The notes beneath the pieces are model-generated. The model saw nothing but the letters and a program-made list of their open reading frames with translations. It did not search any database and was not told the origin of the DNA. The position numbers and the translations under genes were made by a program. From positions 4,096,001 to 4,160,000 of the forward strand of contig CAXXHB010000003.1 of NCBI GenBank assembly GCA_963664815.2: DNA of 64,000 bases, read 5' to 3'. Positions 5,419 through 51,403 of this stretch are shown in pieces (position 1 is the first letter of the stretch; every line of letters begins with the position of its first letter). Source of the stretch: Spirochaetota bacterium (lineage in GTDB: Bacteria > Spirochaetota > UBA4802 > UBA5550).

Positions 5419-5601
5419 TGCAGGATAATAATTATTTCATTGTTCATACATAAATATCGCGAACAGTCTCCGGAGTAGGCGGCTTTCTCTTCAGTTGATG
5501 AAATGAATTTTAAAATAATTATTTACTGAAGCTATAATTCTGGCTATCATTTCTTGACTGAGCCAAAAGATAACACATGAAAATATTCCGCCAGTTTTTC
5601 A

Positions 5602-7113: not shown

Positions 7114-7212
7114 AGCTCTCTCCTGAATCTGCAATATGCCGGTATTATCACTTCTATTCCCGGTTGGCTCTATGAAGAAAGAGAGAAATCCATCAGGATC
7201 CAGCTCTTTCAG

Positions 7213-7230
7213 TTAATCTTCTGATTTCAT
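7213..7230 (-). promoter_or_regulatory. Putative leader peptide uORF (MKSED*) upstream of ABC-F
   Basis: ATG AAA TCA GAA GAT TAA preceded by AAAGGAAA and followed by a hairpin-forming segment. Confidence 0.45.
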
Positions 7231-20486: not shown

Positions 20487-22406
20487 ATGATTAAAAAAGA
20501 AATTCTTGGGCGCTGGACAGTTGAAAAATCCGAGGAGCTTTACGGGATAAAAAACTGGGGGGCCGGTTATTTTGATATATCATCCTCGGGAGAAGTAACA
20601 ATCAATCCATTCGGTAAAAAATCTGATATCAGCATAAGCCTTATGGAGATAATCTCCGGTGTAAGACAACGCGGTTTTGAGATGCCGGTGCTTTTAAGAT
20701 TTGAAAACCTGCTTGATGCGCAGATATCTCACCTGAATGAATCGTTTAAAAAAGCAATGAAAGAATCGAACTATCAGGGCGAATACCGTGGAGTTTATCC
20801 TATTAAAGTAAACCAGCAGCAGCAGGTTATCGAAGAAGTAGCAAAATATGGAGAGAGATACCATCATGGACTTGAAGTAGGAAGTAAAGCCGAGCTTATC
20901 GGGGCTCTTTCAATTATGCGGGATAAAGAGGCATGCCTTATCTGTAACGGATATAAAGACGAAGAATTTATTGATCTTGGTCTATACGCTGTCAAAATGG
21001 GATTCAAATGTTTCTTTGTAATTGAAATTCCCGGGGAACTTGAACTTATAATACAGCGTTCTGAAATTCTTCAGGTGAAACCTCTTATCGGGATGAGGAT
21101 TAAGCTCTCTTCTAAAGCAGGGGGTCACTGGACCGAGTCGGGTGGAGACAGGAGCATTTTCGGCCTCAATACAACCCAGCTTATTGAAGCGGTTGATCAG
21201 CTTAAGAAGAGGAATATGCTTGATTGCCTGAAGCTACTCCATTACCATCTTGGTTCACAAATTCCAAACATAAGGGACATTCGTTCAGCTGTTGTTGAAG
21301 GAGCAAGAATCTACGCCGGACTTGTTAAAGAAGGTGCACAGATGGGTTATCTCGATCTTGGCGGCGGCCTTGCCGTTGACTACGATGGATCTAATACAAA
21401 TTTTTCAAACAGCAGAAATTATTCCATAGATGAATACTGCGTAGACGTAATTGAAATTGTTCAGTCGACTATGGATGAAGAGAATACACCACATCCTACT
21501 ATTATAACAGAATCTGGAAGAACAACAGTAGCCTACTACTCTGTCCTGGTTTTTAATGTACTTGATGTCGCCAAATTTGAAATTGTTAACATCCCTGAAA
21601 CTCCTCCTGAAAACTCTCACGACCTTATAAAAAGTTTATACTACATTCTTAATACTATGAATCTTAAAAACATTCAGGAGTGCTACAACGATGCACTTTA
21701 CTACAGGGATGAAGTACGGGAGCTTTTCAAACATGGAAAAATTTCTCTCAGGGAGCGTTCATTTGCTGAAACTGTCTTCTGGAATATCATAAGCGTCATC
21801 GTTCAGGAAAAGAAAAAAATGAAGCAGTCACCTGTTGATCTCAGTGAGATCGAATCGGCAATCGCTGACATCTATTACTGTAACTTTTCTGTTTTCCAGT
21901 CGGTCCCCGATCACTGGGCTATTAACCAGTTGTTTCCCATTATGCCGGTTCACAGGCTCACTGAAATGCCTTCGAGAAATGCAGTTATTGCGGATATAAC
22001 CTGCGACTGTGACGGCAAAATTGACAGTTTTATAGATTTGCACGATGTAAAACATTTTCTGCCACTGCATGATCTGTCAGGAGAAAATGACTATTATCTT
22101 GGAATTTTTCTTGTGGGTGCCTACCAGGAGACGCTTGGTGACCTGCACAACCTTTTCGGCGATACAAATGTTGCGAGCTTAAGAATTTATCCGAGCGGCG
22201 AGTACGATTTTGTCCGTGAGATTGAAGGTGACACTGTTGCGGATGTACTTTCTTACGTTGAATTTAATACAAAACAGATGCTTCTTGATTTCCGGGAAAT
22301 GGCTGAACAGGCTATTCGCGAAGGACGCATAACAGTCAATGAAAGACGCGAAATAATGAAGGCTTATGATAACGGCCTCAGAGGTTATACATATTTTGAA
22401 AAATGA
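20487..22406 (+). CDS. speA: Biosynthetic arginine decarboxylase
   Basis: VYPIKVNQ (PLP Lys), GLEVGSKAEL, HYHLGSQI, DLGGGL, ITCDCDG, GAYQETLGDLHNLFG. Confidence 0.96.
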   Translation: MIKKEILGRWTVEKSEELYGIKNWGAGYFDISSSGEVTINPFGKKSDISISLMEIISGVRQRGFEMPVLLRFENLLDAQISHLNESFKKAMKESNYQGEYRGVYPIKVNQQQQVIEEVAKYGERYHHGLEVGSKAELIGALSIMRDKEACLICNGYKDEEFIDLGLYAVKMGFKCFFVIEIPGELELIIQRSEILQVKPLIGMRIKLSSKAGGHWTESGGDRSIFGLNTTQLIEAVDQLKKRNMLDCLKLLHYHLGSQIPNIRDIRSAVVEGARIYAGLVKEGAQMGYLDLGGGLAVDYDGSNTNFSNSRNYSIDEYCVDVIEIVQSTMDEENTPHPTIITESGRTTVAYYSVLVFNVLDVAKFEIVNIPETPPENSHDLIKSLYYILNTMNLKNIQECYNDALYYRDEVRELFKHGKISLRERSFAETVFWNIISVIVQEKKKMKQSPVDLSEIESAIADIYYCNFSVFQSVPDHWAINQLFPIMPVHRLTEMPSRNAVIADITCDCDGKIDSFIDLHDVKHFLPLHDLSGENDYYLGIFLVGAYQETLGDLHNLFGDTNVASLRIYPSGEYDFVREIEGDTVADVLSYVEFNTKQMLLDFREMAEQAIREGRITVNERREIMKAYDNGLRGYTYFEK

Positions 22407-22418
22407 GGAGGTCTCAGC

Positions 22419-23597
22419 ATGGGTAAAGTTCTGATTATAGGTGCAGGTGGAGTCGGGCAGGTTGTGGCTCATAAATGCTCACAAATAGCTGCTGTTTTCA
22501 ACGAAATATGCCTTGCAAGCAGAACCCTCTCTAAATGCGAACATATTGCTTCACAGATAAAACGACCTATACGTACAGAACGTGTTGATGCTGACAATGT
22601 CAGGGAAATGGTGAACCTCATCAGAGATTTTAAACCTGATGTAGTAATAAATGTCGCTCTCCCTTATCAGGACCTGACAATTATGGAGGCATGTCTTCAA
22701 ACAAAAGTTCACTATGTTGATACTGCAAACTATGAGCCGCGCGATGAGGCCAGGTTCTGTTATAGATGGCAGTGGGAATACCAGGAACGATTTAAAGATG
22801 CCGGAATTATGGCACTTCTAGGTTCCGGTTTTGATCCGGGCGTTACAAATGTATTTACAGCGTATGCACTTAAACATCATTTCGACGAAATACATGAACT
22901 TGATATTATTGACGTTAACGGCGGAAATCACGGGCTTAAATTTGCCACTAACTTTAATCCTGAAATCAACATCCGTGAGATTACAGCTTTATGCAGACAC
23001 TGGGAAGACGGAAAATTTGTTGAAACACCGCCAATGTCCGTAAATAAAACATTCGATTGTCCTGAAAATGTGGGAACATATAACATCTATCGTCTCTATC
23101 ACGAAGAACTTGAATCGCTAGTTAAGCATATTCCGACAATTAAAAAAGCCCAGTTCTGGATGAGTTTTTCTGAAAATTATTTAAAACACCTTGAAGTTCT
23201 TCAAAATGTGGGAATGACCTCTATTGAACCGGTAAATTTTAATGGTATGAATATTATCCCTCTTGAGTTTTTGAAGGTACTTCTTCCGGATCCTGCATCC
23301 CTCGGTCCTCTGACGAAAGGAAAAACCTGTATCGGATGTGTATGCAGAGGATTAAAGGATGGGAAACCAAAAGAATATTACGTTTATAATATATGTGATC
23401 ACGAGGAGTGTTACCGCGAGGTTAAATCTCAGGCAATTTCATATACTACAGGAGTGCCTGCAATGATTGGAGCGATGATGATTCTTAATGGTTTGTGGAA
23501 GGGGGAAGGTGTCTTCAACATGGAGCAGATGAATCCTGACCCGTTTATGGATGCGCTCAATGTCCATGGACTTCCATGGAAGGAGATTTTCCTGTAA
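22419..23597 (+). CDS. Carboxy(nor)spermidine dehydrogenase (saccharopine dehydrogenase family)
   Basis: GAGGVG, NVALPYQD, DTANYE, GFDPG, ATNFNPEINIRE, HEELESL; lies directly upstream of nspC. Confidence 0.92.
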   Translation: MGKVLIIGAGGVGQVVAHKCSQIAAVFNEICLASRTLSKCEHIASQIKRPIRTERVDADNVREMVNLIRDFKPDVVINVALPYQDLTIMEACLQTKVHYVDTANYEPRDEARFCYRWQWEYQERFKDAGIMALLGSGFDPGVTNVFTAYALKHHFDEIHELDIIDVNGGNHGLKFATNFNPEINIREITALCRHWEDGKFVETPPMSVNKTFDCPENVGTYNIYRLYHEELESLVKHIPTIKKAQFWMSFSENYLKHLEVLQNVGMTSIEPVNFNGMNIIPLEFLKVLLPDPASLGPLTKGKTCIGCVCRGLKDGKPKEYYVYNICDHEECYREVKSQAISYTTGVPAMIGAMMILNGLWKGEGVFNMEQMNPDPFMDALNVHGLPWKEIFL

Positions 23598-23656
23598 AAG
23601 AATATTCCAGGTTTCAGATAAATGCAATTACTCCTATACTATAAAGGGCATATTCC

Positions 23657-24793
23657 ATGACAGACTTCTCTGTTTTTCAAACTCCATGTTTTGCAGTAGA
23701 TGAGGTTCTTCTGAAAAAGAACCTCGAAATACTGTCACGCATACAAAAACTGACCGGTGCGAAAATACTGCTTGCGCTGAAGGGTTTTGCCATGTTTTCT
23801 GCCGCTCCCCTTGTCAGTCAGCATCTCGCAGGAACATGCGCGAGTTCCCCCCATGAAGCAAAACTCGGCCGTGAAGAGTTTGGCGGCGAGGTTCACTCGT
23901 TCGCAGCCGCTTATAGTGACAGCGACTTTGATGAGCTTCTGGAATTCTCCGACCATATTGTACTCAACTCCATAAGCCAGTATGATCATTTTAAAAATAA
24001 AATTGAACGTACCCATAAACAGATAAAGTTCGGTCTGCGTATCAACCCCGAACACAGTGAGACTGAGATCGAGTTATACGATCCATGCTCACCTTTCTCG
24101 CGGCTTGGCATAACAAGGAAAAATTTTCCTGACATACTGCCGCAATATATAAGCGGACTTCATTTTCATAATTTATGTGAAAAAAATTCTGATTCTCTTG
24201 AACGAACTATCATTGCAGCAGAATCTAAATTCGGAGAATTTTTTCATCAGTGCCACTGGATCAACTTCGGAGGAGGACACCACATTACGAGAGAAGATTA
24301 TGATACGGGACTTCTCTCTGACCTTATCATATATTTTAAGGATAAATACCATGTCAATATTTATCTTGAACCCGGGGAGGCTGTCGCACTTAACACAGGG
24401 TTTCTAGTCTCAACCGTTCTTGATGTAATTACAAATGTAAAAAATATAGCTATTCTCGATACATCTGCGGCTGCACATATGCCGGACGTTATCGAAATGC
24501 CGTACAGGCCTTCCATCATCGGCTCGGCTGAACCCGGAGTTCTTCCATACACATACAGACTCGGCGGTCTTTCATGCCTCGCCGGAGACATTATCGGCGA
24601 TTTCTCATTCAGCAAACCTCTTGTCCCGGGGGACAGACTTGTGTTCACAGACATGGCCCACTACTCCATGGTAAAAACAAATACATTCAACGGATTAAAA
24701 CTTCCGGATATCTATTATTTCAATTCTGACACCGGCATAATTCTTCACAGGAAAAGTTTCGGTTACAGTGATTTTAAAGGGAGACTTTCATGA
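23657..24793 (+). CDS. nspC: Carboxynorspermidine decarboxylase
   Basis: LLALKGF, LYDPC, SRLG, GLHFHNLCE, NFGGGHH, HMPDVIEMPY, CLAGD, HYSMVKTNTFNG. Confidence 0.94.
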   Translation: MTDFSVFQTPCFAVDEVLLKKNLEILSRIQKLTGAKILLALKGFAMFSAAPLVSQHLAGTCASSPHEAKLGREEFGGEVHSFAAAYSDSDFDELLEFSDHIVLNSISQYDHFKNKIERTHKQIKFGLRINPEHSETEIELYDPCSPFSRLGITRKNFPDILPQYISGLHFHNLCEKNSDSLERTIIAAESKFGEFFHQCHWINFGGGHHITREDYDTGLLSDLIIYFKDKYHVNIYLEPGEAVALNTGFLVSTVLDVITNVKNIAILDTSAAAHMPDVIEMPYRPSIIGSAEPGVLPYTYRLGGLSCLAGDIIGDFSFSKPLVPGDRLVFTDMAHYSMVKTNTFNGLKLPDIYYFNSDTGIILHRKSFGYSDFKGRLS

Positions 24794-25656
24794 CAGGAAA
24801 TATTTTTTTTCTCGAAAGCGAAGGGGGGCGCCCCGATAAGGATAAATCATTTTTTCATGTATTACCCGTTCCGTATGAGAAAACCGTATCGTACGGGAAA
24901 GGCACAGCCGGCGGACCTGCCGCAATAATTGCAGCTTCGCAGCAACTTGAAGCCTTTGATGGAATCTCTCTCCCTTCAGAAAATGGAATTTATACACACA
25001 AAGCGATTGACTGCAGCGGTGCCGATATTCATGTCTTACATGACATAGAAAAGAAGACCACATCTATACTGTCCATGGGAAAGATTCCAGTTATCCTTGG
25101 GGGTGAACATACTGTAAGTTATGGCCCCATTATTGCCGCGAAGAAACACTTTAACACAATCGGAGTAATACACTTCGACGCGCACGCTGACCTCAGAAAC
25201 AAATTCGAAGAATCTGACTTTTCTCACGCCTGTGTTATGCGCAGAGTTCATGAAAAAGGAATTCCAATTGTGCAGATAGGGGTAAGAAGCTTTTCCCTGG
25301 AGGAGCAGAAATACAGAGATGAAAACAGCGACATTATCTGTTATAACGCTTCCTGCATATACAGAAAAAACAGTTTCACTATCGATTTCCCTGCGAATTT
25401 CCCTGACGACATCTACATTTCGGTTGATGTTGATGGACTGGATCCATCTGTTATTCCACATACCGGGACACCTGTCCCGGGAGGATTATACTGGTATGAT
25501 TTTTTCAGATTTATAGAATCAATACCGGCTTCAAAAAGAATAATCGGCTTTGATGTTGTAGAACTTGCTCCTGCTGAAGGTTCAGTTGTTTCTGATTTTG
25601 CAGCGGCACAGCTTACTTATAATATTATGGGAATAATAAGCAGACGGATAAAATAG
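24790..25656 (+). CDS. speB: Agmatinase
   Basis: GGEH, DAHADL, SHACVM, DVDGLD, GTPVPGG, FDVVE ureohydrolase motifs; ATGA overlap with nspC. Confidence 0.92.
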   Translation: MTGNIFFLESEGGRPDKDKSFFHVLPVPYEKTVSYGKGTAGGPAAIIAASQQLEAFDGISLPSENGIYTHKAIDCSGADIHVLHDIEKKTTSILSMGKIPVILGGEHTVSYGPIIAAKKHFNTIGVIHFDAHADLRNKFEESDFSHACVMRRVHEKGIPIVQIGVRSFSLEEQKYRDENSDIICYNASCIYRKNSFTIDFPANFPDDIYISVDVDGLDPSVIPHTGTPVPGGLYWYDFFRFIESIPASKRIIGFDVVELAPAEGSVVSDFAAAQLTYNIMGIISRRIK

Positions 25657-39232: not shown

Positions 39233-40354
39233 ATGAAGCGTATATTATTAACATTCTGTATACTAATACCTTTAATATCAGCAATTCCTTCATATGCGGC
39301 TTGGGAAAAGGATGGCAAGGCTAAAATTCAGATAGCGCTGCTTCTTGACACAAGCAGCAGCATGGACGGATTGATTGACCAGGCAAGATCGCAGCTGTGG
39401 AAGGTAATTAATGAACTCGCCGTAGCACAGAAAGACGGGAAAGTTCCCTCGCTTGAAGTTTCTCTTTTTGAATACGGCAAAAGCAGCATCCCTTCGGGCG
39501 AAGGGTACCTGAGGATGGTGACATCGTTTACTCATGACCTTGACAGAATTTCATCAGAGCTCTACGCTCTTACTACCAATGGAGGTGATGAATACTGCGG
39601 CATGGTCATAGACTCGGCAACACGGAATCTTCAGTGGGACAGCAATGACAACAATCTTAAACTGATTTTTATCGCCGGCAATGAACCTTTTGACCAGGGA
39701 GAAATTAATTACAGGGAATCAATTCAAAGAGCAAAGAAAAAAGGAATTATTGTTAATACAATATTCTGCGGTGACAGAGAAACCGGTATAAGTTCGTGGT
39801 GGAAGGCAGGAGCAGATATTTCAGGAGGAAATTACATAAGCATCGACCAGAATATTCAGGTGAGGACCATTAACGCTCCCCAGGATGCAGAGCTGACCAG
39901 ACTTGGTGCTGAACTTAACAATACTTATATTTCCTTCGGCAAGGCAGGAGGCGACAAGAAAAAAGAGCAGGAGAAGCAGGATTATAACGCCATGTCAAAA
40001 TCTGCATCTATCGCTGCAGAAAGATCTATATCAAAAGCATCTGTTCATTACGATAATTCAGAATGGGATATAGTAGATGCAGCGTCAAAAGGAACAGTTG
40101 ATCTTAAAAATATGAAAAAGGATCAGCTCCCCTCCGAAATGAAAAGCATGGATTCAAAGGAACGAGAGGTTTACGTTAAAAATATGGAAAGGAAACGTGA
40201 AACAATAAAAGCCAGAATAAATAAACTGAATGCAGAAAGAAAGGCTTATATAGAAAAAATGGAAAGGGAAAATAAAGAGGAAAGTACTTTAGACTCGGCA
40301 ATTATAAAAACTGTACGGAAACAGGCAGAGGAAAAAAGTTTTAATTTTAAATAA
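39233..40354 (+). CDS. Exported von Willebrand factor A domain protein
   Basis: Signal peptide; MIDAS LLDTSSSM; GGDEYCG; IFIAGNEPF. Confidence 0.85.
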   Translation: MKRILLTFCILIPLISAIPSYAAWEKDGKAKIQIALLLDTSSSMDGLIDQARSQLWKVINELAVAQKDGKVPSLEVSLFEYGKSSIPSGEGYLRMVTSFTHDLDRISSELYALTTNGGDEYCGMVIDSATRNLQWDSNDNNLKLIFIAGNEPFDQGEINYRESIQRAKKKGIIVNTIFCGDRETGISSWWKAGADISGGNYISIDQNIQVRTINAPQDAELTRLGAELNNTYISFGKAGGDKKKEQEKQDYNAMSKSASIAAERSISKASVHYDNSEWDIVDAASKGTVDLKNMKKDQLPSEMKSMDSKEREVYVKNMERKRETIKARINKLNAERKAYIEKMERENKEESTLDSAIIKTVRKQAEEKSFNFK

Positions 40355-40528
40355 AACTCCCAATCCGGTTCTTCCACGCCAACTTTCATTCGAACGCGGG
40401 ATCCATACCCGCATTCGGTTATTAAAACACGATTATCCCTTATGATTAAATGGAGCAGAGTTTAATGTTTTAAATTCTTTAAGTGAATTTTTATTGCATA
40501 ATTACACCAGATGTAATATTTTCCATTC

Positions 40529-41014
40529 ATGAAAAAATACATTACATTTCCTTTATTCATGCTGATCCTTATCCTGTCCTGCACGGGAAAAGATAGAGCT
40601 AACGACCAGAAAGCCCGTCTGAGATATATAAATAAAAAGTACATGTTCACCCTCCAGTTTCCAGAAAGATGGGGCTATTATATGGATTTCGAAAAAAAAG
40701 AGATAATTGACCCGCAGATTGTTATCCCGATTGTTTTTTTTGCACTCCCCACAAAATCACGGGAGTGGCAACCGTTAAATGTGCCGGCAGGATATAGTGA
40801 ACTTTTTTACGTAAGAATATTCACACACGATCAATGGAAATTATTTCAAGAAAAATATAAATCCGGTGAAGATTTTCCGCAAAACGACAGGCTTTTCACA
40901 ACTGGTAAAAACTTTGTGTATATGATCAGATATCCTGTTTCAATACCGGTTGACCTCTACCACTACATGAAAGAGTCCGAATCTGTTACTGCAACTTTTA
41001 AGATTATTAAATAA
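40529..41014 (+). CDS. Putative lipoprotein, hypothetical
   Basis: MKK + hydrophobic stretch + ILSC spirochaetal lipobox. Confidence 0.68.
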   Translation: MKKYITFPLFMLILILSCTGKDRANDQKARLRYINKKYMFTLQFPERWGYYMDFEKKEIIDPQIVIPIVFFALPTKSREWQPLNVPAGYSELFYVRIFTHDQWKLFQEKYKSGEDFPQNDRLFTTGKNFVYMIRYPVSIPVDLYHYMKESESVTATFKIIK

Positions 41015-41379
41015 CTGAACTGTTAACTTATCCGCCATTTACTATAACTTCAGGCTATTATAAAATATTTTTTAAAAAAGAGTTGAATGGACATAATCAT
41101 CTGTCATTATTGCCAGTGTTCTGATTAGACAGTTTGCAGTCAATACTATGGCAATTAATGAGATTGAGTTAATCTTATATTTTGATTTCGCATTACTTTG
41201 ACATTACTCATCACAGACCGCTCAACAAGCGTTAAAAAAGTTTCCCTGCCTGTATAGCGCCTGTAGAAATCAGCGAAGCCGATTGATACAAGATTTTAAT
41301 TCAGTCATGTAATGCTTTCAATAGTAATTGCTTAATTAATTTTTAAAAATAATTCATTTATAATTCAGGAGACATTATT

Positions 41380-42099
41380 ATGATAAAAAAGATATTCTTT
41401 ACGGGCATATTTTTGATTTTTACGATATCTCTTTACTCTCAGGCCCCGGGGACAAATAAAACCACCGTAACCGAAGATAAAAAAGCCACAACAGATGAAA
41501 AGAAGACTGTTACTGAAGAAAAGAAAAATACTCCTGCGGAAGTCAAAGCTTCATCTAATTCAGCAGCGCATGAATTTATCGGTAAACTTGGAACCGGTTA
41601 TGCTTCAGATCCGGGGAAATTCGGACTTGATTTGAGCCTTAACTACATTTTCAACCTTGATCCTGTTTTTGTTTTCGGATTTGAGGGTGATCTTTTCTGG
41701 ATAAAATGGAACAATGCACTCAGTGATGTTAATGCCGGGGGTTCAGCAAACGGTTCACTCAAGGCGGAAACAAACCTTTACACAATTCCGGTTTTTGCAA
41801 ACGCCCAGATAAGATTTCCTTTTCTCAGGGATAAGATATATGTAATGCCTGCAATAACCGTCGGACTCGGCTACTGTTTTATGGTTCTCGATTATGACTC
41901 TGATACTAACAAAGGAACCGATTTATACAGTGGTTTTGCATGGCAGGTACTCGCTTCTTTTTCCAATAAAATATATAAGGATTCAGCCGTTGAATTCGTA
42001 TTTGATCTGGGGTACAGAGGACTAAGTCCTGACAGAAATAATGTTGAAATAGACATGTCAGGATTCATTACAAGACTCGGCGTAAAAATGAATATGTAA
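41380..42099 (+). CDS. Outer-membrane beta-barrel protein with a K/E/T-rich N-terminal linker
   Basis: CAGGAG RBS; signal peptide; amphipathic strands (GKLGTGY, FGFEGD, VGLGY, FDLGYR, TRLGVKMNM). Confidence 0.7.
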   Translation: MIKKIFFTGIFLIFTISLYSQAPGTNKTTVTEDKKATTDEKKTVTEEKKNTPAEVKASSNSAAHEFIGKLGTGYASDPGKFGLDLSLNYIFNLDPVFVFGFEGDLFWIKWNNALSDVNAGGSANGSLKAETNLYTIPVFANAQIRFPFLRDKIYVMPAITVGLGYCFMVLDYDSDTNKGTDLYSGFAWQVLASFSNKIYKDSAVEFVFDLGYRGLSPDRNNVEIDMSGFITRLGVKMNM

Positions 42100-42109
42100 G
42101 GGAATAGCG

Positions 42110-43045
42110 ATGAAAAGAAAAGTTTTCCTTTTAATCTTAATTGTCTTTCTGTTATCCATCTTCTCATGTAAAGAAGAGAACAGAAAGATCAGGATAGGAA
42201 TTCTTCCGGTCATCGATACCCTTCCTCTTGTTGTTGCCGATTCAGAGGGTCTCTTTAAGAAAGAGGGACTTGATGTTGAACTTATTATATTCAACAGTGC
42301 CCTTGAAAGAGACGCGGCTTTTACTGCAGGAAATCTTGACGGGGCATTTGGAGATCTTATAAATTTCCTTCTCATGATAAAAAATGGTATCGATACACAG
42401 CTCGTCTGCGAATCATACCATACCTCAGATAAGGGAATAATGTTCGGATTGATGGCATCTCCGGGATCACCAATAAAAAACATCAACGAAATTAATAAAG
42501 AACAGATTGCAATATCGCGCGGTTCAATAATTGATTTTTTTCTTGATCAGATTGCTCTTTCTAAAAATGTTTCTCCTGAAAGTCTTAACAAACTTGAAGT
42601 AAAAACCATCCCTGTAAGATATCAGATGCTGATTTCCGGCTCGATTAAACTCGCGCTGCTGCCTGAACCTCTTGTCAGTAAAGGGATAAAAGACGGCGCA
42701 AAGCTTGTTGCTGACGACAGGGGTCTTAATACTACGGCTACAGTAATAATGTTCAGAAATGATTTTCTGGAAAACAACCGCATGCTCATGAAAAAATTTA
42801 TAAAGGCTTACAACGGCAGCGTCAGAAAAATAAACAGCTCCCCGGAAAAATTTAAAAATATTATGACAACCAAACTCCGGTTGCCGGCGGACATTAAAGA
42901 TACTTTTAAAACCCCTGTTTTCCATGAAGCTGTTATTCCCGCAGAAAAAGACGTAATGCTGGTATACAGCTGGATGAAAAAAAACGGTATGATTTCAATA
43001 CCCGTTGAGTATAAAAAACTTATCCGGCCGATTGACGAAAAGTGA
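42110..43045 (+). CDS. ABC transporter substrate-binding lipoprotein (SsuA/NMT1/THI5-like)
   Basis: IFSC lipobox; IRIGILP..DTLPLVVA...GLFKKEGLDVEL; LPEP. Confidence 0.88.
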   Translation: MKRKVFLLILIVFLLSIFSCKEENRKIRIGILPVIDTLPLVVADSEGLFKKEGLDVELIIFNSALERDAAFTAGNLDGAFGDLINFLLMIKNGIDTQLVCESYHTSDKGIMFGLMASPGSPIKNINEINKEQIAISRGSIIDFFLDQIALSKNVSPESLNKLEVKTIPVRYQMLISGSIKLALLPEPLVSKGIKDGAKLVADDRGLNTTATVIMFRNDFLENNRMLMKKFIKAYNGSVRKINSSPEKFKNIMTTKLRLPADIKDTFKTPVFHEAVIPAEKDVMLVYSWMKKNGMISIPVEYKKLIRPIDEK

Positions 43046-43773
43046 TCAGGCTAGAATCAGTCAACAAGAGATATTCCGGGACCACTATATTACAGGATAT
43101 CTCATTCAATATTGAGAACGGAAAGTCTCTGTCAATAATAGGGCCTTCCGGCTGCGGCAAAACTACTCTTCTCTACATGATTGCGGGACTGATCCGGCCT
43201 TCAGGCGGAACTATTCTGTTAAATAACAGGGAGATAAAAGCTCCTGATTCAAAAACAGCATTTATACTGCAGGATTACGGTCTCCTGCCATGGAAGAGTG
43301 TAATCCAGAACGTGTCGTTGGGAATGAAAATAAAGAAATATCCGAAAGAGATAATTGCTGCTGTAACAGAAAAAATTCTTCACGATCTCGGAATATACGC
43401 TCACCGGGACAAGTACCCCGCAACTTTAAGCGGCGGAGAGAAGCAGAGAGTTGCCATTGCACGCGCGCTATCAACCGAGCCTGAAATTCTTCTTATGGAT
43501 GAACCTTTCTCATCACTTGATACTCTTACGAGAGAAAAACTCCAGCAGGCAGTTTATGATATACACAGAAAGGGGAATCTTACACTGCTGACTGTAACCC
43601 ATAGTATTGAAGAAGCAGTTTTCCTTGGAGATACTATACTTGTTATGGCCGGTGGACCGGGGAGAATAATTTCCACTATCAGTAATTCTTCACGCAGAAG
43701 AAAAGATTTCAGAAACTCAGTGGAATTTTACTCAACCTGCGGTTCAATAAGAGGTATAATCGGAGATTTATGA
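43042..43773 (+). CDS. ABC transporter ATP-binding protein (TauB/SsuB-like)
   Basis: GPSGCGKT, LQDYGLLPW, LSGGEKQRVAIAR, LMDEPFS, VTHSIEEAV. Confidence 0.93.
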   Translation: MIRLESVNKRYSGTTILQDISFNIENGKSLSIIGPSGCGKTTLLYMIAGLIRPSGGTILLNNREIKAPDSKTAFILQDYGLLPWKSVIQNVSLGMKIKKYPKEIIAAVTEKILHDLGIYAHRDKYPATLSGGEKQRVAIARALSTEPEILLMDEPFSSLDTLTREKLQQAVYDIHRKGNLTLLTVTHSIEEAVFLGDTILVMAGGPGRIISTISNSSRRRKDFRNSVEFYSTCGSIRGIIGDL

Positions 43774-45407
43774 TACAGAGGATCCCCTTTATTAATCTTT
43801 TTATGACTGTTTCAGCTATCTTTATTATATGGAAGATTGCTTCACTGGCAGCTTCTTCCCCCGTTCTGCCGTCTCCGGAAAATGTTTTTATAGCCTTTAT
43901 CAATGAAGCGCGGATGCCGCTGTTCTGGAGTCATTTTGGAATAAGTGCATGGAGGGTATGTGCAAGTATTGCTATTTCATGGATTATTGCATTCCCATTG
44001 GGGGCGGTTCTAGGGTACAGCTCCGCTATGGATAAAATTTTTTCACCGGTTGTTTATCTTGCTTATCCTGTGCCGAAAATGGTTCTGCTGCCGATTGTTG
44101 TTTTGTTTTTTGGTTTAGGGGACATATCAAAGGTTATTCTTATTACGCTTATCCTCTTTTTTCAGATTCTTGTAGCTGTACGTGACGGAGTGCGCTCGGT
44201 CAACTCCAGATATTACGATTCGGTAGAATCAATGGGTGGGAGTATTTACGATATTTTCATGCACGTTGTGATTCCTGCCGCTCTCCCTTATAGTTTCACG
44301 GCAATAAGAATATCTGCGGGGACGGCGATCTCTGTATTATTCTTTGCTGAATCTTTCGCCACATCAAGCGGCCTGGGATATCTTATTATGGACGCATGGG
44401 CGCGGGCAGATTATATTATGATTTTTGTAGGCATAACAGGAATGAGCATCATGGGACTTATCCTGTTTATTATATTCTCTCTGCTTGAGAAAAAATTTTG
44501 TGCATGGAACTTTACAATGGAAAATGATAAATCACCGGCTGAGGGCATCCTCTCCAAAACTGTAACCTATTCAAAAATGATAAAACTATCGCATACACTT
44601 TTTGCTCTCCCCTTTGCCCTGTCGGGCCTGGTGCTTGCACTGCGGGAGCATAATGTTACACTCCCCATGGTATTCTGGATAATTATAGCAATGGTGGGGG
44701 CGCGTTCAGCAGCCATGGGATTTAACCGTATTGCTGATGCCGATATTGATGCAGAAAATCCGCGAACTGCAATACGTGAGATCCCGTCGGGAAATATTTC
44801 AAGAAAAGAAGCCCTCATCTTTACAATATTTTCTTCAGCCCTGCTGGTTTTTTCTGCGGCAATGCTTTCCGAAATCTGTCTGTGGCTTTCATTCCCGCTT
44901 CTCCTCTTTCTTTTTTTCTATTCTTACACAAAGCGCTTTACATGGCTTGCCCATATCTACCTCGGTTTCGCTATAGGGCTTGCGCCAGTGGCTGTATGGA
45001 TTGCTATTGCCGGCATCCCTGAGTTACCGGTTATACTCCTTGCCCTTGTCCTGATGACACACATTGCCGGATTTGACATACTCTATTCATGCCAGGATAT
45101 TGAGTTTGACAGGAAAAAAAATCTTTTTTCCATACCGGCGCGATTCGGCATAAAAAAGGCTTTTTTATTCTCCGCAGCACTTCATATACTGACAACTGCT
45201 CTGCTTTCTCTTCTCTACTTTACTGCAGGATTTGGAATTTACTACTTTATTTTTATAATTGTAATTGCCATACTATATATAATAGAACATAAAATCGTTA
45301 ACCCCGATGATATTTCAAATATCAATATTGCATTTTTTCATATTAACAGTATTATATCTGTAGCTGTATTTGCTGCTGTACTAACAGGATATCTTACAGG
45401 CAGATGA
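43770..45407 (+). CDS. Fusion of an ABC permease (SsuC/TauC-like) and an MqnP-type UbiA-family polyprenyltransferase
   Basis: Residues 1-~248 are a permease (LPSP, YPVPK, EAA-like loop, VVIPAALP, GLGYLI). Residues ~250-545 are MqnP-like (IKLSHTLFALPFA, ARSAAMGFNRIADADIDAENPRT, YSYTKRFT, GFDILYSCQDIEFD). No stop at the junction. Confidence 0.88.
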   Translation: MIQRIPFINLFMTVSAIFIIWKIASLAASSPVLPSPENVFIAFINEARMPLFWSHFGISAWRVCASIAISWIIAFPLGAVLGYSSAMDKIFSPVVYLAYPVPKMVLLPIVVLFFGLGDISKVILITLILFFQILVAVRDGVRSVNSRYYDSVESMGGSIYDIFMHVVIPAALPYSFTAIRISAGTAISVLFFAESFATSSGLGYLIMDAWARADYIMIFVGITGMSIMGLILFIIFSLLEKKFCAWNFTMENDKSPAEGILSKTVTYSKMIKLSHTLFALPFALSGLVLALREHNVTLPMVFWIIIAMVGARSAAMGFNRIADADIDAENPRTAIREIPSGNISRKEALIFTIFSSALLVFSAAMLSEICLWLSFPLLLFLFFYSYTKRFTWLAHIYLGFAIGLAPVAVWIAIAGIPELPVILLALVLMTHIAGFDILYSCQDIEFDRKKNLFSIPARFGIKKAFLFSAALHILTTALLSLLYFTAGFGIYYFIFIIVIAILYIIEHKIVNPDDISNINIAFFHINSIISVAVFAAVLTGYLTGR

Positions 45408-45417
45408 AAGAAGGTTT

Positions 45418-46002
45418 ATGAAAAAAACAATAATTACAGGTATAACAGGGGCTTCAGGAAGCATATATGCCCTCAACTTTCTCAGACATGCTTCAGCGCA
45501 TGGAATCGATTTACGTATTATTGTATCATCTAACGGAGAAGCTGTGTTTAAACATGAAACCGGGATGAGTGTATCGGAAGCCATCATGGGACTTGACGTT
45601 TTCCCGAAGGAGACCGGTTCAATAAGACTTTACGATAACAATGACATGTTTGCGGATATAGCAAGCGGCACACATAAGACAGACGGCATGGTTATTGTAC
45701 CATGTTCCATGAAAACACTTTCAGGTATTGCAAACGGCTATTCCTCATCCCTGCTGGAACGCGCAGCAGATGTAATGCTTAAAGAAAGGAGAGACCTTAT
45801 CCTCACTTTAAGAGAGACTCCTCTCAGTCTTGTTCATTTGAGGAACATGGTTCACGCAGCAGAGGCCGGGGCCATAATACTCCCTGCAGCACCCGGGTTA
45901 TATCACAAACCTGAAACAATTGATGACCTTGCAGATTTTATTACCGGGAAAATATTCGATCAGCTTGGAATAGAACACTCTCTGAATACTGTCTGGAGAT
46001 AG
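45418..46002 (+). CDS. ubiX: Flavin prenyltransferase UbiX
   Basis: GITGASG, IASG, PCSMKTL, RAADVMLKERR, RETPL. Confidence 0.94.
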   Translation: MKKTIITGITGASGSIYALNFLRHASAHGIDLRIIVSSNGEAVFKHETGMSVSEAIMGLDVFPKETGSIRLYDNNDMFADIASGTHKTDGMVIVPCSMKTLSGIANGYSSSLLERAADVMLKERRDLILTLRETPLSLVHLRNMVHAAEAGAIILPAAPGLYHKPETIDDLADFITGKIFDQLGIEHSLNTVWR

Positions 46003-46057
46003 CCTTTTATTTATAGTTTATATAAATAATAAGAAAATTAAAAACTGGAAATCAAAC

Positions 46058-47896
46058 ATGAAAAAAAACCACAGAAATCTCACCGGCTTTATAAATGAGC
46101 TTGAAAAAGAAAATGAATTAATCCGGTTTAACAAGCCGGTATCAAATATTCTTGAAATCACAGAAATCACAGACCGCATGTCAAAACTCCCCGGAGGAGG
46201 CAAGGCCTTACTATTTGAAAACGTTACCGGGTATGATTATCCCGTTCTTATAAACCAGTTCGGCAGCATCAAACGGATTAACATGGCTTTTGGAAGCGAG
46301 AGCCTCGACCTGCTGGCAGGAAGGCTTCAGAATATAATAAATACAAAGCCGCCAAAAACTTTTATTGAAAAAGTCAGGCTCATCCCTGAACTTATAAAAT
46401 ATTCACAGTTTCTTCCGCGCACAATTAAAGGGAAAGCCCCGTGCCAGGAGATTATACATACCGGGAATGATGTAGATCTCGGCAAGATGCCGGTTCTTTT
46501 CTGCTGGCCCGGTGACGGAGGCCCCTTCATCACACTCCCGGTTGTTTTCACAAAGGGATTTAGCGACGGTAAACACAACGCCGGAATGTACAGGATGCAG
46601 GTTTATGACAGAAACACAACAGGTATGCACTGGCATATACACAAGGACGGGGCACACCATTACCACGAATATCTCAGGGAGGGGAAAAGGATGGAGGTTG
46701 CTGTCGCTATAGGTACTGACCCGGCGGTAACATATTCTGCCACTGCTCCTCTGCCTCGCGGAGTTGATGAAATGCTTCTGGCAGGGTTTATAAGACAAAA
46801 ACCGGTTGAAATGGTAAAATGCATCACTGTTGATATCGAAGTACCTGCTGAATCCGAGTTCATTATTGAGGGATATGTTGATCCCGGTGAATCCAGGATA
46901 GAAGGACCCTTCGGCGATCATACCGGGTATTATTCACTCAAAGGGGATTACCCCGTTTTCCATGTTACAGCCGTTACAAGCAGAAAAAACCCGGTGTACA
47001 GCGCAACAATTGTCGGCAAACCACCGATGGAGGACTGCTACTTGGCTCTCGCCACGGAAAGAATATTTCTACCCATGATAAAAACTGTTCTTCCGGAAAT
47101 TATCGATTATATGCTGCCCTGGGAAGGTGTATTTCACAATATTGCGGTTGTTGCAATTGAAAAGGAATTTCCAGGCCACGCGGTGAAAGTTATGAACGGG
47201 CTGTGGGGTTCCGGTCAGATGAGTTTCGCTAAAATTCTGGTTATGATAGATGAGCCCTCTCTCCTCTCTGACAGAACCGGGCTTATGATGCATATACTAA
47301 ACACTGTGGATTTGTCATCAGACATAATTCTTACAAAAGGGATACTCGATGTGCTTGACCACTCTGCAGACAAACCTCTTTACGGTTCAAAACTCGGGAT
47401 AGATGTGACAAAGCGTATAAAAGGGGAGGATAAAAGATCCGACAACTATATACATGGAAAATCAGATTATAAAAAAATTGAAAGCCTCGCGTTGGCTCTC
47501 GACAGAAAAATTACAGCTTCAAGAACGTTATTTGATGAATGCAGAAACAGGATTGTTATGCTCTCAGTAAAAAAAGATAAAAAAGCAAACTCCCATTATT
47601 TTTTAAAAAAAATCCTCAACTCCTCTCTTGCTCATGAAGGATTAATTATAATATTCAATCATGATATAGATCTGAACAATGATTCTTTTACTCTCTGGAA
47701 AGTATTTAATAATGTCGATCCTGTCCGGGATATTACTCAGGAAAAGGGATGCATGATAATTGACGCTACTAAAAAAGGAATCAGTGACGGGCATACCAGG
47801 GAATGGCCGGATGATATTGAAATGACAAAAGAAGTAATTGAAAAAGTGGATTATATATTAAAAGATGAACCGGAATTTGAACATATTCCTTCGTAA
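46058..47896 (+). CDS. mqnL: UbiD-family prFMN decarboxylase, long futalosine-pathway type (MqnL-like)
   Basis: GKALLFEN, CWPGDGGPFITLP, NAGMYRMQ, MHWHIHKDG, EGPFGDHTGYY, VGKPPMED, DVLDH, duplicated C-terminal IDAT module; 612 aa. Confidence 0.85.
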   Translation: MKKNHRNLTGFINELEKENELIRFNKPVSNILEITEITDRMSKLPGGGKALLFENVTGYDYPVLINQFGSIKRINMAFGSESLDLLAGRLQNIINTKPPKTFIEKVRLIPELIKYSQFLPRTIKGKAPCQEIIHTGNDVDLGKMPVLFCWPGDGGPFITLPVVFTKGFSDGKHNAGMYRMQVYDRNTTGMHWHIHKDGAHHYHEYLREGKRMEVAVAIGTDPAVTYSATAPLPRGVDEMLLAGFIRQKPVEMVKCITVDIEVPAESEFIIEGYVDPGESRIEGPFGDHTGYYSLKGDYPVFHVTAVTSRKNPVYSATIVGKPPMEDCYLALATERIFLPMIKTVLPEIIDYMLPWEGVFHNIAVVAIEKEFPGHAVKVMNGLWGSGQMSFAKILVMIDEPSLLSDRTGLMMHILNTVDLSSDIILTKGILDVLDHSADKPLYGSKLGIDVTKRIKGEDKRSDNYIHGKSDYKKIESLALALDRKITASRTLFDECRNRIVMLSVKKDKKANSHYFLKKILNSSLAHEGLIIIFNHDIDLNNDSFTLWKVFNNVDPVRDITQEKGCMIIDATKKGISDGHTREWPDDIEMTKEVIEKVDYILKDEPEFEHIPS

Positions 47897-48288
47897 TTGT
47901 TTTTTATAACAGTTACATCTGGAAACCCTATTTGGCTGAATTCTCTTTGATCGAGTTTGCATATACGCAGGTAAAAATAATACTGTTATACTGACCGATC
48001 AATGAGCACTTAATATGCAATTTTCTGTTAAGCATACGCAATTTTTTGCATATGGCTACCGTTGTCTCCCTGTTAAATGTGGCACGAATTATACCTGAAT
48101 TATATAAATCGATATCCTCATTATAAAAAAATTATTGACATGAAAGTCAGCAATGGGCATGAAAATAAGTAATTCCACTATGTAATTTCAGATGAAGTTG
48201 TGCAATCTCGATATTTGAGATTTTATAAACTTAATTTTTAGCAGAAATTCATAGAATGAAAAAAATTTCAGATAAAGAGGTATATAAA

Positions 48289-49107
48289 ATGAGCTCATAC
48301 AATTTCAAGGGAAAAATCGCCGTAGTAACCGGCGCTGCTTCAGGTATAGGCCGCGAGCTGGCTCTTCAGCTTTCAAAAGAGGGCTGTATAGTAGCAGCAG
48401 CTGATTATAATAAAAAAGATCTCGAAGAAACAGTAAAAATGGTAAAAGATGCCGGCGGGCAGGCCAGCGCACATGAAGTTGATATTTCCAATGCTGCAGT
48501 TGTAACTAAATTCGCAGCTGATGTTAAGAAAAAATATGGCAGTATTGATATCCTCATTAACAACGCAGGTGTAACACTTTTTGGAAAATTTGACGAACTT
48601 GCTCAAAAAGATATGGAATGGATTATGGATATCAATTACTGGGGTGCAATTTATATGACAAGGGCTTTTATGCCGGAAATTAAGAACAAACCGGAATCAT
48701 ACCTTGTAAACGTCGCAAGTATTTTCAGTGTGGTTGGTACAGGAAACCAGTCTGCCTACAGTGCGACAAAATTTGCCCTCAGAGGATTTACAGAAGCTCT
48801 TACTGATGAACTACAGAAATTTCCCATCACTGTTATGAGTGTTATCCCAGGCGGAATCAAAACCAATCTCGGTAAAAATGCACGTTTTGTTAAAAACGGT
48901 GTAGTATTGAAAGATACAGAAAAACTCGCAAAAAGAATGGAAAAAATCGGAAGAACAACTGGCGCAGAAGCTGCTGCCGCAATAATCAAAGGAATGAAGA
49001 AAAGAAAAGAGCGCATACTTATCGGTTCTGATGCATGGATAATCCAGACAATCCAGAGATTTGCTCCATCCAAATACAACAGGGTTCTTGGAAAAATATT
49101 CGGCTAA
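48289..49107 (+). CDS. Short-chain dehydrogenase/reductase
   Basis: TGAASGIG, NNAG, YSATK (YxxxK), PGGIKT; GAGG RBS before 48289. Confidence 0.92.
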   Translation: MSSYNFKGKIAVVTGAASGIGRELALQLSKEGCIVAAADYNKKDLEETVKMVKDAGGQASAHEVDISNAAVVTKFAADVKKKYGSIDILINNAGVTLFGKFDELAQKDMEWIMDINYWGAIYMTRAFMPEIKNKPESYLVNVASIFSVVGTGNQSAYSATKFALRGFTEALTDELQKFPITVMSVIPGGIKTNLGKNARFVKNGVVLKDTEKLAKRMEKIGRTTGAEAAAAIIKGMKKRKERILIGSDAWIIQTIQRFAPSKYNRVLGKIFG

Positions 49108-49339: not shown

Positions 49340-50785
49340 TTATTGCGCTCCGGATTGTTTCAGTATCTTAACTATTTCATCCTTGCCTTTGGTAGTTGCA
49401 TATATAAGTGCGGTTTTACCCTTTTTGTCTTTCATATTAACATCAGCTCCTTTTTCAAGCAATGCTTTCACGAGATCAGTTCTTCCGAAATAGCAAGCAA
49501 TCATCAGAGAGGTTTGACCTTCTCTGTCTTTCGCGTTAATATCTGCACCTTTTTCAATCAGATATTTCAGTGCTTCAGGTTTTCCGCTAATGATTAGATT
49601 GATCAGGGCGGTTTTACCCTTTTTGTCTTTCACGTTGACATCAGCACCTTTATCCATCAACATCTGCAAAACCTCTGTTTGCATCTTTACTATATCCTGG
49701 TCTACTCCGGGATAGATAATGTAATTTTCGAGTACGAATGCATGTATCAATGCAGTTTGACCGGCAAGGTCTTTCAGCTTGACATCTGCTCCCCTTTCCA
49801 GTAAAATTCTGACAACTGCGGTTTGCATCTTTCTGATTTCTGCATCAATTCCGCCCGGATTCACACTTATCATCAATGCAGTCTGGCCCTTTTTATCTTT
49901 TGTATTTATACCTGCACCTTTATCAAGTAATAGTTTTACAGTTTCGGTCATACCGGCGGCAGCCGCGTAAAACAGAGCGGTTTTCCCTTCATTGTCAATT
50001 GCGTTAATATCGATGCCTCTATCCAGCAGCAGATTTACTGCTTCAGACTGCCCTCTGGAAATTGCAGCCATAAGTGCGTTCTGCCCATCTTTGTCTTTTG
50101 CACTAATATCAGCCCCTTTATCAAGCAACATTTTCACTAAATTATAAGAAATACCTTCCCGATTATTCCGTTGCGCAGCATATAGCAATGGGGTTTTACC
50201 ATATTTGTCTCTTACATTAACATCAACACCTCTATCAAGAAATACTTTAATTGCCTCAGGTTCTCCTCGTCTGGCACATATCACTGTCAATGGAGTTTGA
50301 TCCAATGTATTTTGCACGTTAATATCGGCACCCTTTTCAAGCAGCATGTTGAGAATTTTAGCACCCGCCAGCCTGTCAGCAAGATAATTCCCCCCTGAAA
50401 CACGCAATATTGCAGTCAGGCCATTATTATCTTTTGCGTTAACATCAGCACCTTTATCAAGTAGCCTCTTTACAGCATTAATATTGGTAAAACCGACCGC
50501 AATCATCAATGCAGTATTGCCAGCTTTGTCTTTTGCATTGACATCGGCGCCTTTATCAATTAATATTTTTATAAGTTCATCATCTCCGTAATTACTCATT
50601 GTAATCAATGCTGTCAGCCCATTTCCGTCTCTTGCATTTACATCTGCACCGTTATTCAGTGCTTTAATAATTCCTCCCCTGTTTTCGTTTTCGAACGCTT
50701 TTACTAAATCTTCAGTAGAGCCTGCGTATACAGGCATGAAAGGAATAAGACCAAACAGCAAAAGGCAATTAACTATTCTTTTCAC
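49340..50785 (-). CDS. Exported ankyrin-repeat protein (~12 repeats)
   Basis: Many G.TAL..A...G....VK.LL.KGADVNAKD units; likely GTG start at 50785 after GAAGGAGA gives a signal peptide. Confidence 0.9.
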   Translation of the reverse strand: MKRIVNCLLLFGLIPFMPVYAGSTEDLVKAFENENRGGIIKALNNGADVNARDGNGLTALITMSNYGDDELIKILIDKGADVNAKDKAGNTALMIAVGFTNINAVKRLLDKGADVNAKDNNGLTAILRVSGGNYLADRLAGAKILNMLLEKGADINVQNTLDQTPLTVICARRGEPEAIKVFLDRGVDVNVRDKYGKTPLLYAAQRNNREGISYNLVKMLLDKGADISAKDKDGQNALMAAISRGQSEAVNLLLDRGIDINAIDNEGKTALFYAAAAGMTETVKLLLDKGAGINTKDKKGQTALMISVNPGGIDAEIRKMQTAVVRILLERGADVKLKDLAGQTALIHAFVLENYIIYPGVDQDIVKMQTEVLQMLMDKGADVNVKDKKGKTALINLIISGKPEALKYLIEKGADINAKDREGQTSLMIACYFGRTDLVKALLEKGADVNMKDKKGKTALIYATTKGKDEIVKILKQSGAQ

Positions 50786-51403
50786 AATATTCTCTCCTTC
50801 TAATATCCAGTTATCCCGAGAAATGTATAACTTAAAGTCGCTTTGCAAAACCTGGTATCGTCTTTAAACACGACTTCAGTTTTTTTCAGGCATAAATTAT
50901 TTTCTCTTTAAAATAAAAAAAACAATGTTAAAAAAGTGCCTTACCAGAAACAATAGTTATAACAATATAGTTATTGTATATAAACTGCAAATTCAATAAA
51001 AAATATATTCCTGAGCATTGACTCTTTGAACTTTTACTATTTTAATAATCGTCGGCATAACCACATCTTAATTGATTTTCAATATAAAACAAATTACTTT
51101 TAAAATCAGATTAATATTACATCTATCCGGATTTGTTCATAATTTAAAATGATCGGCAGGAAACTGTAGACGGTTTACTGACCCTTTACTGACAGTATAT
51201 TAACAGTAGTTTACTTATGTCTGAAAGGGTGAGCATACTGTTTGAATACTGTCAATAGACTCTCTGTCAAATAATAAGCGTTAAATAACAAACGGTACAT
51301 GTAAAAACATGCACTGATTAAAAACTTGAAAAAAAATAAACATCAATGTTTATATAGAAAACATTTATCATTTCCAGTAAATAATGCAGCAGGAGTTTTC
51401 ATA

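Follow-up and report, generated by a model that had tools for sequence, protein, structure and literature searches.

The window analyzed here, a stretch of 64,000 nucleotides from a Spirochaetota bacterium (assembly GCA_963664815.2, contig CAXXHB010000003.1, positions 4,096,001 to 4,160,000 of the forward strand), contains a single open frame (43770..45407, + strand) in which the permease of an ATP-binding cassette (ABC) transporter and a UbiA-family prenyltransferase of the MqnP type are joined in one polypeptide of 545 amino acids (aa). The fused gene belongs to a cassette with the order substrate-binding protein (SBP), ATPase, fusion, UbiX and UbiD. We hold with moderate confidence that this cassette is a menaquinone head-group salvage module, which imports ready-made naphthoate and turns it into menaquinone by prenylation, decarboxylation and methylation. 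The salvage reading is based on the conservation of the cassette, the frequent lack of de novo head-group genes in its carriers, the menaquinone-type UbiD, the importer features of the transporter and a compatible membrane topology; which molecule is imported, that transport runs inward, and any kinetic or physical coupling of import to prenylation are inferred.

Anatomy and reality of the fusion

Pfam recognizes both halves well above the gathering cut-offs: BPD_transp_1 covers aa 75-239 with 70.2 bits (cut-off 26.4), and aa 279-528 match UbiA (PF01040) over the whole profile (1-250 of 250) with 184.6 bits (cut-off 34.2). A preliminary description of this DNA had read the 545-aa frame as an ABC permease that ends near LEKKFCAW and runs through a linker of about 20 aa into a complete UbiA-family domain with both Asp-rich motifs, and this proved correct in every detail checked: LEKKFCAW occupies aa 239-246 and NFTMENDKSPAEGILSKTVTY aa 247-267. 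The permease half carries an EAA-type loop at aa 150-173 (DSVESMGGS...VVIPAALP), which is conserved in 69 sequences, and it closes with a CxW motif (C244, W246). The two Asp-rich motifs of the UbiA family, NxxxDxxxD and DxxxD, are represented by N319xxxD323xxxD327 and by D436 with D443xxxD447; within the UbiA half they lie in the loops that follow helices 2 and 6, and their residues are invariant in 69 fused proteins. As the CxW motif also terminates unfused relatives of the permease, and as the solo MqnP of the same genus begins at the equivalent of Met250, the two proteins are joined almost end to end.

The AlphaFold (AF2) model of the fusion, calculated from a 69-row alignment (pLDDT 84.3, pTM 0.69), contains six long permease helices followed by nine UbiA helices (aa 273-543), with pLDDT values below 50 at aa 253-258 and a short helix at aa 260-270. 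Six helices would leave the C-terminus of the permease in the cytoplasm, and nine UbiA helices starting from there would place both Asp-rich loops on the cytoplasmic side as well, which is where these loops lie in solved UbiA proteins. The membrane topology, which the preliminary description had singled out as a point to check, is thus compatible with the fusion as far as the model goes, the junction and both Asp-rich loops being predicted as cytoplasmic. The UbiA half superimposes on ApUbiA (4od4_A) with Z 30.8 and rmsd 2.1 over 267 aligned residues (33% identity) and adopts the nine-helix fold, and the nearest fold to the permease half is that of the importer subunit NrtB (8w9m_B; Z 19.7, rmsd 2.9, 231 aligned residues); no solved chain in the structure search covers both halves of the model. 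Prediction of a complex between the permease half and the UbiA half returned a score of 0.00, which amounts to no verdict and is neutral as to contact. At the level of family models, the UbiA half passes TIGR01475 (285.8, cut-off 180.8), and the permease half does not reach the SsuC and TauC equivalogs (111.1 versus 347 and 104.1 versus 342).

A domain-architecture search, as proposed in the preliminary description, retrieved both Pfam domains in 118 of the best 120 matches from a collection of 5.8 billion proteins, at lengths of ~534-568 aa and down to 50% identity; the exceptions among these 120 are P0001 (497 aa, both domains, the window's own) and two shorter single-domain pieces. In 30 of the 30 locus rows that hold both halves (several of them duplicates of one genome), the halves share one frame with no stop between them. 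The junction region (44490-44580) is bridged, with no difference and no indel, by sequences from four runs of two studies; these are assembled contigs (X1 record 1, X3 record 4, X4 record 8, X5 record 14) rather than raw reads, and the contig X1 record 1 is possibly the source assembly itself. For practical purposes, neither an assembly error nor a stop loss confined to this strain comes into question. The caveat had been raised that an in-frame ATG at 44517, with a weak GGAA upstream, might be the ancestral start and the fusion a recent stop loss. The ATG and the GGAA (44506-44509) are indeed present, and the ATG matches the position at which G003 and G007, both of the window's genus, start their solo MqnP, but the solo forms are secondary, being nested in fused clades, and the idea of a recent stop loss fails on a fusion that is common to Spirochaetota, Thermodesulfobacteriota, Chloroflexota and Methanomassiliicoccales at 50-88% identity. 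We have rejected recent stop loss and assembly error alike on the strength of the fused relatives, the in-frame loci and the agreeing contigs. As expected of a Rosetta-stone fusion, both halves are found as separate genes elsewhere (stand-alone MqnP and free permeases of the CxW subfamily), and synteny and phyletic pattern lend indirect support to their acting in one pathway or complex. A promoter scan gave 22 sites versus 20.5 expected, so that an internal promoter is not readable from it, and no RNA family attained its gathering score within 40300-48400. A search of sequencing runs brought up no RNA data set containing this sequence.

Cassette genes, distribution and history

The ATPase gene overlaps the SBP gene and the fusion by 4 bases each (coordinates in Table 1). 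Among 23 fused loci drawn from one-genome-per-species collections, SBP and ATPase lie directly upstream in 22, the lone exception having 106 bases of flank, and UbiD lies downstream in 19, with three of the four misses on contigs that end at or just after the fusion. The permease half is accompanied by an adjacent ABC ATPase and an extracytoplasmic SBP, as is typical of a Type I importer permease, and the MqnP half by its gene partners MqnL (menaquinone-type UbiD) and MqnM (UbiX) immediately downstream, UbiX being the maker of prFMN for UbiD.

Table 1. Features of the fused gene and its cassette (window coordinates).
Feature	Position	Strand	Details
Outer-membrane-barrel-like protein	41380-42099	+	239 aa; signal peptide; no Pfam family
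Substrate-binding lipoprotein (SBP) of ABC importer	42110..43045	+	311 aa; signal peptide with Cys20; Pfam NMT1_2/NMT1
ABC ATPase	43042..43773	+	243 aa; GTG start; Pfam ABC_tran 115.5 bits
Permease half of fusion	43770..44516	+	aa 1-249; 6 predicted transmembrane (TM) helices; BPD_transp_1
MqnP-type UbiA prenyltransferase half of fusion	44517..45407	+	aa 250-545; 9 TM helices; two Asp-rich motifs
In-frame ATG (Met250)	44517..44519	+	start codon of stand-alone MqnP in two same-genus species
UbiX-family flavin prenyltransferase (MqnM-like)	45418..46002	+	NF004685 208.1 (cut-off 188); TIGR00421 199.6 (cut-off 108.9)
UbiD-family decarboxylase, menaquinone (futalosine) type, MqnL-like	46058..47896	+	TIGR03701 mena_SCO4490 equivalog 632.9 (cut-off 495.9)

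An N-terminal signal or anchor was present on all 20 SBPs examined. The SBP of the window scored 92.6 with TIGR01728 (SsuA_fam), below the cut-off of 163.5, and its AF2 model (pLDDT 92.8) has its nearest folds in the SsuA, NrtA, TauA and PqqT binding proteins (Z 27-25), a fold group to which ThiY also belongs. Kinship of the SBP with MqnA or MqnD was also considered and rejected: profile comparison assigned probabilities of only 1.4% and 0.3%, and the likeness is that of the general binding-protein fold, with MqnD (Z 21.2) and MqnA (Z 19.2/17.5) ranking below the transporter SBPs. In spirochaete loci, fused and ABC-less alike, the gene for the 239-aa barrel-like protein lies directly upstream of the cassette.

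Fused carriers were found in Spirochaetota, Syntrophobacterales, Desulfobacterales, Desulfatiglandales, Thermodesulfobacteriota, one Chloroflexota bin and Methanomassiliicoccus, and the stand-alone MqnP proteins of futalosine-complete genomes are 52-84% identical to the UbiA half. Trees of the UbiA half (84 rows) and of the permease half (37 rows), both excluding one-genome duplicates and short matches, recovered the same two large groups, one comprising Spirochaetota, a Syntrophobacterales-type pair and Methanomassiliicoccales, the other being Desulfobacterales-type. Since both halves yield the same major clades, the fusion evolved as one gene; it is ancient and has spread horizontally, crossing the borders of phyla and even domains.

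The UbiA tree shows fused and solo states intermixed, with seven changes between them, at least four of which are required by supported branches. In G003 and G007, the barrel-like gene is followed by a 296-aa MqnP, UbiX and UbiD, with no trace of ABC genes; their MqnP starts with MEN(N/D)K, and the ATG at 44517 is the exact point from which their DNA is homologous to the fused form. Met250 is not conserved in distant fused forms, and G003 and G007 nest inside the fused clade (support 98, UbiA tree), indicating that the ABC module was lost there and that their solo forms are secondary. In the same-family spirochaete G011 (L010, C21), SBP and ATPase are kept and the permease gene (1471-2283, - strand) stops 13 residues past the CxW motif; this genome has lost the UbiA half along with UbiX and UbiD, and its permease nests among fused spirochaete permeases.

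Some further members and relatives of the family deserve mention. The fusion of G016 (L005, C13) has a UbiA half on a long branch (1.12 changes per site), lacks a neighboring UbiX or UbiD, and is perhaps in decay or in the course of a functional change. The closest free relatives of the transporter, at L104 (G091:C1:496000-507000) and L105 (G089:C33:75000-86000), are 39-40% (SBP), 44-45% (ATPase) and 46-47% (permease) identical to the window's genes and have as neighbors a hybrid sensor kinase of ~1300 aa and a response regulator whose output domain is HD-GYP-type or GGDEF. Other MqnP-like fusions occur in a library of representatives at 50% identity, namely P0129 (UbiA with Na_H_Exchanger, 722 aa), P0151 (UbiE-like methyltransferase with UbiA, 721 aa) and P0175 (Amidohydro_1 with UbiA, 713 aa).

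Proposed head-group salvage and its competitors

MqnA/MqnD (PF02621) was detected in 12 of 34 distinct fusion-bearing genomes versus 34 of 35 genomes with a stand-alone MqnP. The 12 carriers are G000, G001 and G005 plus 9 of 21 genomes of a locus survey, and the negatives (no match over cut-off) include G016 and nine further archaea; the 34 solo genomes are all 33 of those surveyed plus G003, the single miss being G007, which is 78% complete. Radical-SAM genes of the MqnC/MqnE type occurred in exactly the same 10 of 22 genomes as PF02621 and in none of the other 12. MenB exceeded its cut-off in 0 of the 22 fusion-bearing genomes and MenG in 17 of them. Many carriers keep every post-naphthoate step and none before it. 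Incompleteness can hardly account for the joint loss of four scattered genes in 12 of 21 bins when 33 of 33 comparable bins retain them, and one genome without the de novo genes is a single 2.55-Mb chromosome.

In the archaeal branch, McrA is present in this single-chromosome genome, a member of Methanomassiliicoccales, and in its relative. The archaeal cassette consists of SBP, ATPase, fusion, MenG and UbiD (TIGR03701 623.9, cut-off 495.9), with UbiX elsewhere in that genome; in gene content, this is the complete post-naphthoate set of the futalosine route plus a transporter. The fusion occurs in 11 of 81 sampled Methanomassiliicoccales genomes (66-100% identity among themselves), and PF02621 exceeded its cut-off in none of these 11. 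According to passages of PMC6019823, the model for Methanomassiliicoccus luminyensis is without a quinone, and we found no literature on menaquinone in Methanomassiliicoccales in a search that did not cover most subscription journals and supplements.

According to the salvage reading, a soluble naphthoate from other microbes, most likely 1,4-dihydroxy-6-naphthoate, would be bound outside the cell by the SBP and pumped in by the ATP-driven ABC importer; the attached MqnP half would prenylate the incoming naphthoate, UbiD/UbiX would then decarboxylate the prenylated naphthoate, and MenG would methylate last, giving menaquinone. The uptake of an aromatic acid followed by prenylation had already been suggested in the preliminary description, and it fits the conserved cassette and the 22 of 34 carrier genomes without de novo head-group genes. 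A more daring extension is vectorial prenylation, in which the importer would hand its cargo directly to the attached prenyltransferase, thereby trapping the naphthoate in the membrane, and by which a clade of methanogens would make menaquinone from a scavenged bacterial ring. We offer this tentatively and rate it as rather unlikely; to our knowledge, such a group-translocation-like mode has no precedent among ABC importers.

Several observations weigh against salvage. The UbiA half does not reach the NCBIfam MqnP models (NF041586, 267.1 versus 430; NF041584, 229 versus 420; NF041585, 222 versus 375); the same shortfall applies to four of four stand-alone homologues from futalosine-complete genomes, so that these narrow models appear to miss this clade. 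The nearest folds of the SBP, which are binders of sulfonates, nitrate, taurine, pyrimidine and PQQ, tie within ~2 Z, and no ligand is assignable from the fold. While a naive 2x2 Fisher test of fused versus solo genomes gives p = 1.5e-5, the kinship-corrected test has a median p of 1 with four independent pairs on supported branches, and so few phylogenetically independent pairs leave the corrected test without power. Carriers are nearly all metagenome bins, and the genomes reached through loci come without a completeness figure. Both routes, the cassette and MqnA/D, coexist in 12 of 34 carriers. The window's genome has MqnA/D together with MqnC/E-type genes, which means that import is not needed there; its sole MqnP-type gene is the fusion, and the cassette would here be only a supplement to de novo synthesis while supplying the sole MqnP. 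Furthermore, G003 and G007 lack the whole ABC module and retain a stand-alone MqnP, so that the enzyme can do without the permease; at 45-47% identity, the nearest free permeases adjoin sensor kinases rather than genes of quinone synthesis; and the genome of G016 (91% complete) yielded no UbiD, MenG or MqnA/D.

The same cassette logic might serve another cargo, be it 1,4-dihydroxy-2-naphthoate, 4-hydroxybenzoate or a range of compounds, with another prenylated quinone or phenol as the product, or menaquinone made via another precursor. This would be in line with the best NCBIfam matches of the UbiA half, which include 4-hydroxybenzoate polyprenyltransferase models (all below cut-off), with the occurrence of paralogous or orthologous ABC sets together with MenA, a user of 2-naphthoate (G055, G011), and with the presence of MenA without MenB over cut-off in the window's genome. 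We nevertheless consider it unlikely, as the linked decarboxylase passes the menaquinone-specific TIGR03701, MenA does not require a UbiD, and MenG, the only further modifying enzyme in the archaeal cassette, is enough for menaquinone and not for ubiquinone, which additionally requires hydroxylases and an O-methyltransferase.

A fusion devoid of functional coupling, with the transporter handling some sulfonate-, taurine- or nitrate-like solute that is unrelated to the enzyme and the join being neutral or merely co-regulatory and then inherited, strikes us as quite improbable. A neutral accident would not hold SBP, ATPase, fusion and UbiD together over four phyla, two domains and down to 50% identity, and it would leave unexplained that loss of MqnA-E is restricted to carriers and that a paralogous transporter lies beside MenG and MenA, even though the transporter falls into the SsuABC/TauABC/NrtABC group by sequence and fold, G003 and G007 do well without the ABC module, and the free relatives have non-quinone neighbors. 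The ABC half might also work outward or as a scaffold, either flipping or exporting the prenylated product or anchoring a membrane metabolon of MqnP, UbiD and UbiX. A fusion could serve the assembly of such a membrane complex, but a BPD_transp_1 transporter that works with an extracytoplasmic binding protein is an importer, the SBPs examined (20/20) are exported or anchored, and an exporter leaves the loss of de novo genes unexplained, making this explanation very unlikely. Finally, an artefact, with a missed stop or frameshift in the assembly concealing two genes, retains next to no probability in view of the 118 fused relatives, the 30 stop-free loci and the concordant contigs of two studies, notwithstanding that contigs rather than raw reads were compared and that the internal ATG exists.

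Related systems and meaning for menaquinone biology

MenA is the prenyltransferase for 1,4-dihydroxy-2-naphthoate. A second cassette in genome G055 (L103, G055:C101:2000-9454, genes 3035-7224) comprises an NMT1-like SBP, ATPase, permease, MenG and MenA, all unfused. The SBP-ATPase-permease set of this second cassette is 30-41% identical to that of the window, its MenG scores 201.4 with TIGR01934 (cut-off 158), its MenA passes two equivalog cut-offs (NF004751, 339.2 versus 264), and no MenB exceeds the cut-off in the genome. The arrangement looks like a classical-pathway counterpart of the fused cassette. G011 (98% complete) has MenA and MenG with orthologous ABC genes and no match to MqnP, UbiD or PF02621. 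Proximity of MenA to ABC genes as a rule was rejected, because among eight MenA contexts only that of G055 showed it, ABC genes being adjacent in none of the other seven. The window's genome also has a MenA-type gene (G000:C3:464213-465055; TIGR00751 248.7 bits, cut-off 102), with no ABC genes adjacent and no MenB over cut-off in the genome.

Among known systems, the late futalosine enzymes MqnP (SCO4491-type), MqnL and MqnM, steps whose assignment is given as predicted in passages of Ravcheev and Thiele (2016; PMC4746308), share with the UbiA half the same family signature and the same UbiX and TIGR03701 UbiD partners; unlike that MqnP, the enzyme here is the C-terminal half of an ABC permease protein and occurs without MqnA-E in 22 of 34 carriers. 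ApUbiA of Aeropyrum pernix (4od4/4od5), which has the same nine-helix fold and a profile E-value of 2.7e-45 with the UbiA half, is a single-domain protein, in contrast to the fusion. The NrtB/CmpB/SsuC/TauC permeases (8w9m, 9u9z; profile E-values 2.4e-19 and 2.6e-20) have SBP and ATPase partners in common with the permease half, which differs from them in its own C-terminal CxW motif and in the enzyme attached at that end. PqqT (9b1u_A), which binds the quinone cofactor PQQ for its uptake, aligns with the SBP at Z 25.0 and rmsd 3.1 over 275 residues (16% identity); its membership in the SBP fold family shows that the family can carry aromatic quinone carboxylates, with the qualification that PqqT ties with SsuA, NrtA and TauA within ~2 Z.

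Two precedents concern the logic of the arrangement rather than its parts. Passages of PMC4746308 put forward the hypothesis that menA/menG-only genomes use external 1,4-dihydroxy-2-naphthoate. The fused cassette would follow the same logic, late enzymes being kept and the head group coming from the community, and G011 and the second cassette of G055 resemble such genomes and possess a related ABC system. That hypothesis had no transporter; here there is a candidate one, and it shares a polypeptide with the prenyltransferase of the futalosine branch. Rosetta stone fusions of IspH with UbiA (PMC4746011) likewise join a UbiA-family enzyme to a protein of a connected pathway; the partner described there is a soluble enzyme of the isoprenoid pathway and not a transporter subunit.

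Elsewhere in the window, three loci drew our attention. Genes for an arginine decarboxylase, a saccharopine-dehydrogenase-like protein, an Orn/DAP/Arg-type PLP decarboxylase and an arginase-family protein (20487-25656, + strand) look like a polyamine synthesis cluster. A 714-aa protein (14697-16844, - strand) resembles HdrD/GlpC in combining two CCG cysteine-rich domains with a 4Fe-4S dicluster region, and might be a quinone-linked oxidoreductase. Ankyrin repeats (Ank_2, 308.7 bits) take up nearly all of a 502-aa protein (49340-50848, - strand), an unusual find in a free-living bacterium.

As argued in passages of PMC4746308, importers of soluble menaquinone precursors must exist, and the transporters 'remain to be annotated'. 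We found no description of a permease-MqnP fusion or of a naphthoate importer in the literature, PMC13386864 included, in a search that did not extend to most subscription journals or to supplements. As an importer family and a naphthoate prenyltransferase reside in one polypeptide, the strongest kind of genomic link, the fusion names a testable candidate for the missing quinone-precursor importer. Public annotation gives one half only, either 'UbiA-like polyprenyltransferase' or 'SsuC', and pathway reconstructions consequently miss the transporter. The cassette also flags apparent head-group auxotrophs among the anaerobes, namely Desulfobacterales-type bacteria, some spirochaetes, a Chloroflexota bin and the fusion-bearing Methanomassiliicoccales (11 of the 81 sampled). 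Such auxotrophy would bear on cultivation, on syntrophy and on the energy metabolism of those methanogens, some of which, if the salvage reading holds, are predicted to contain menaquinone.

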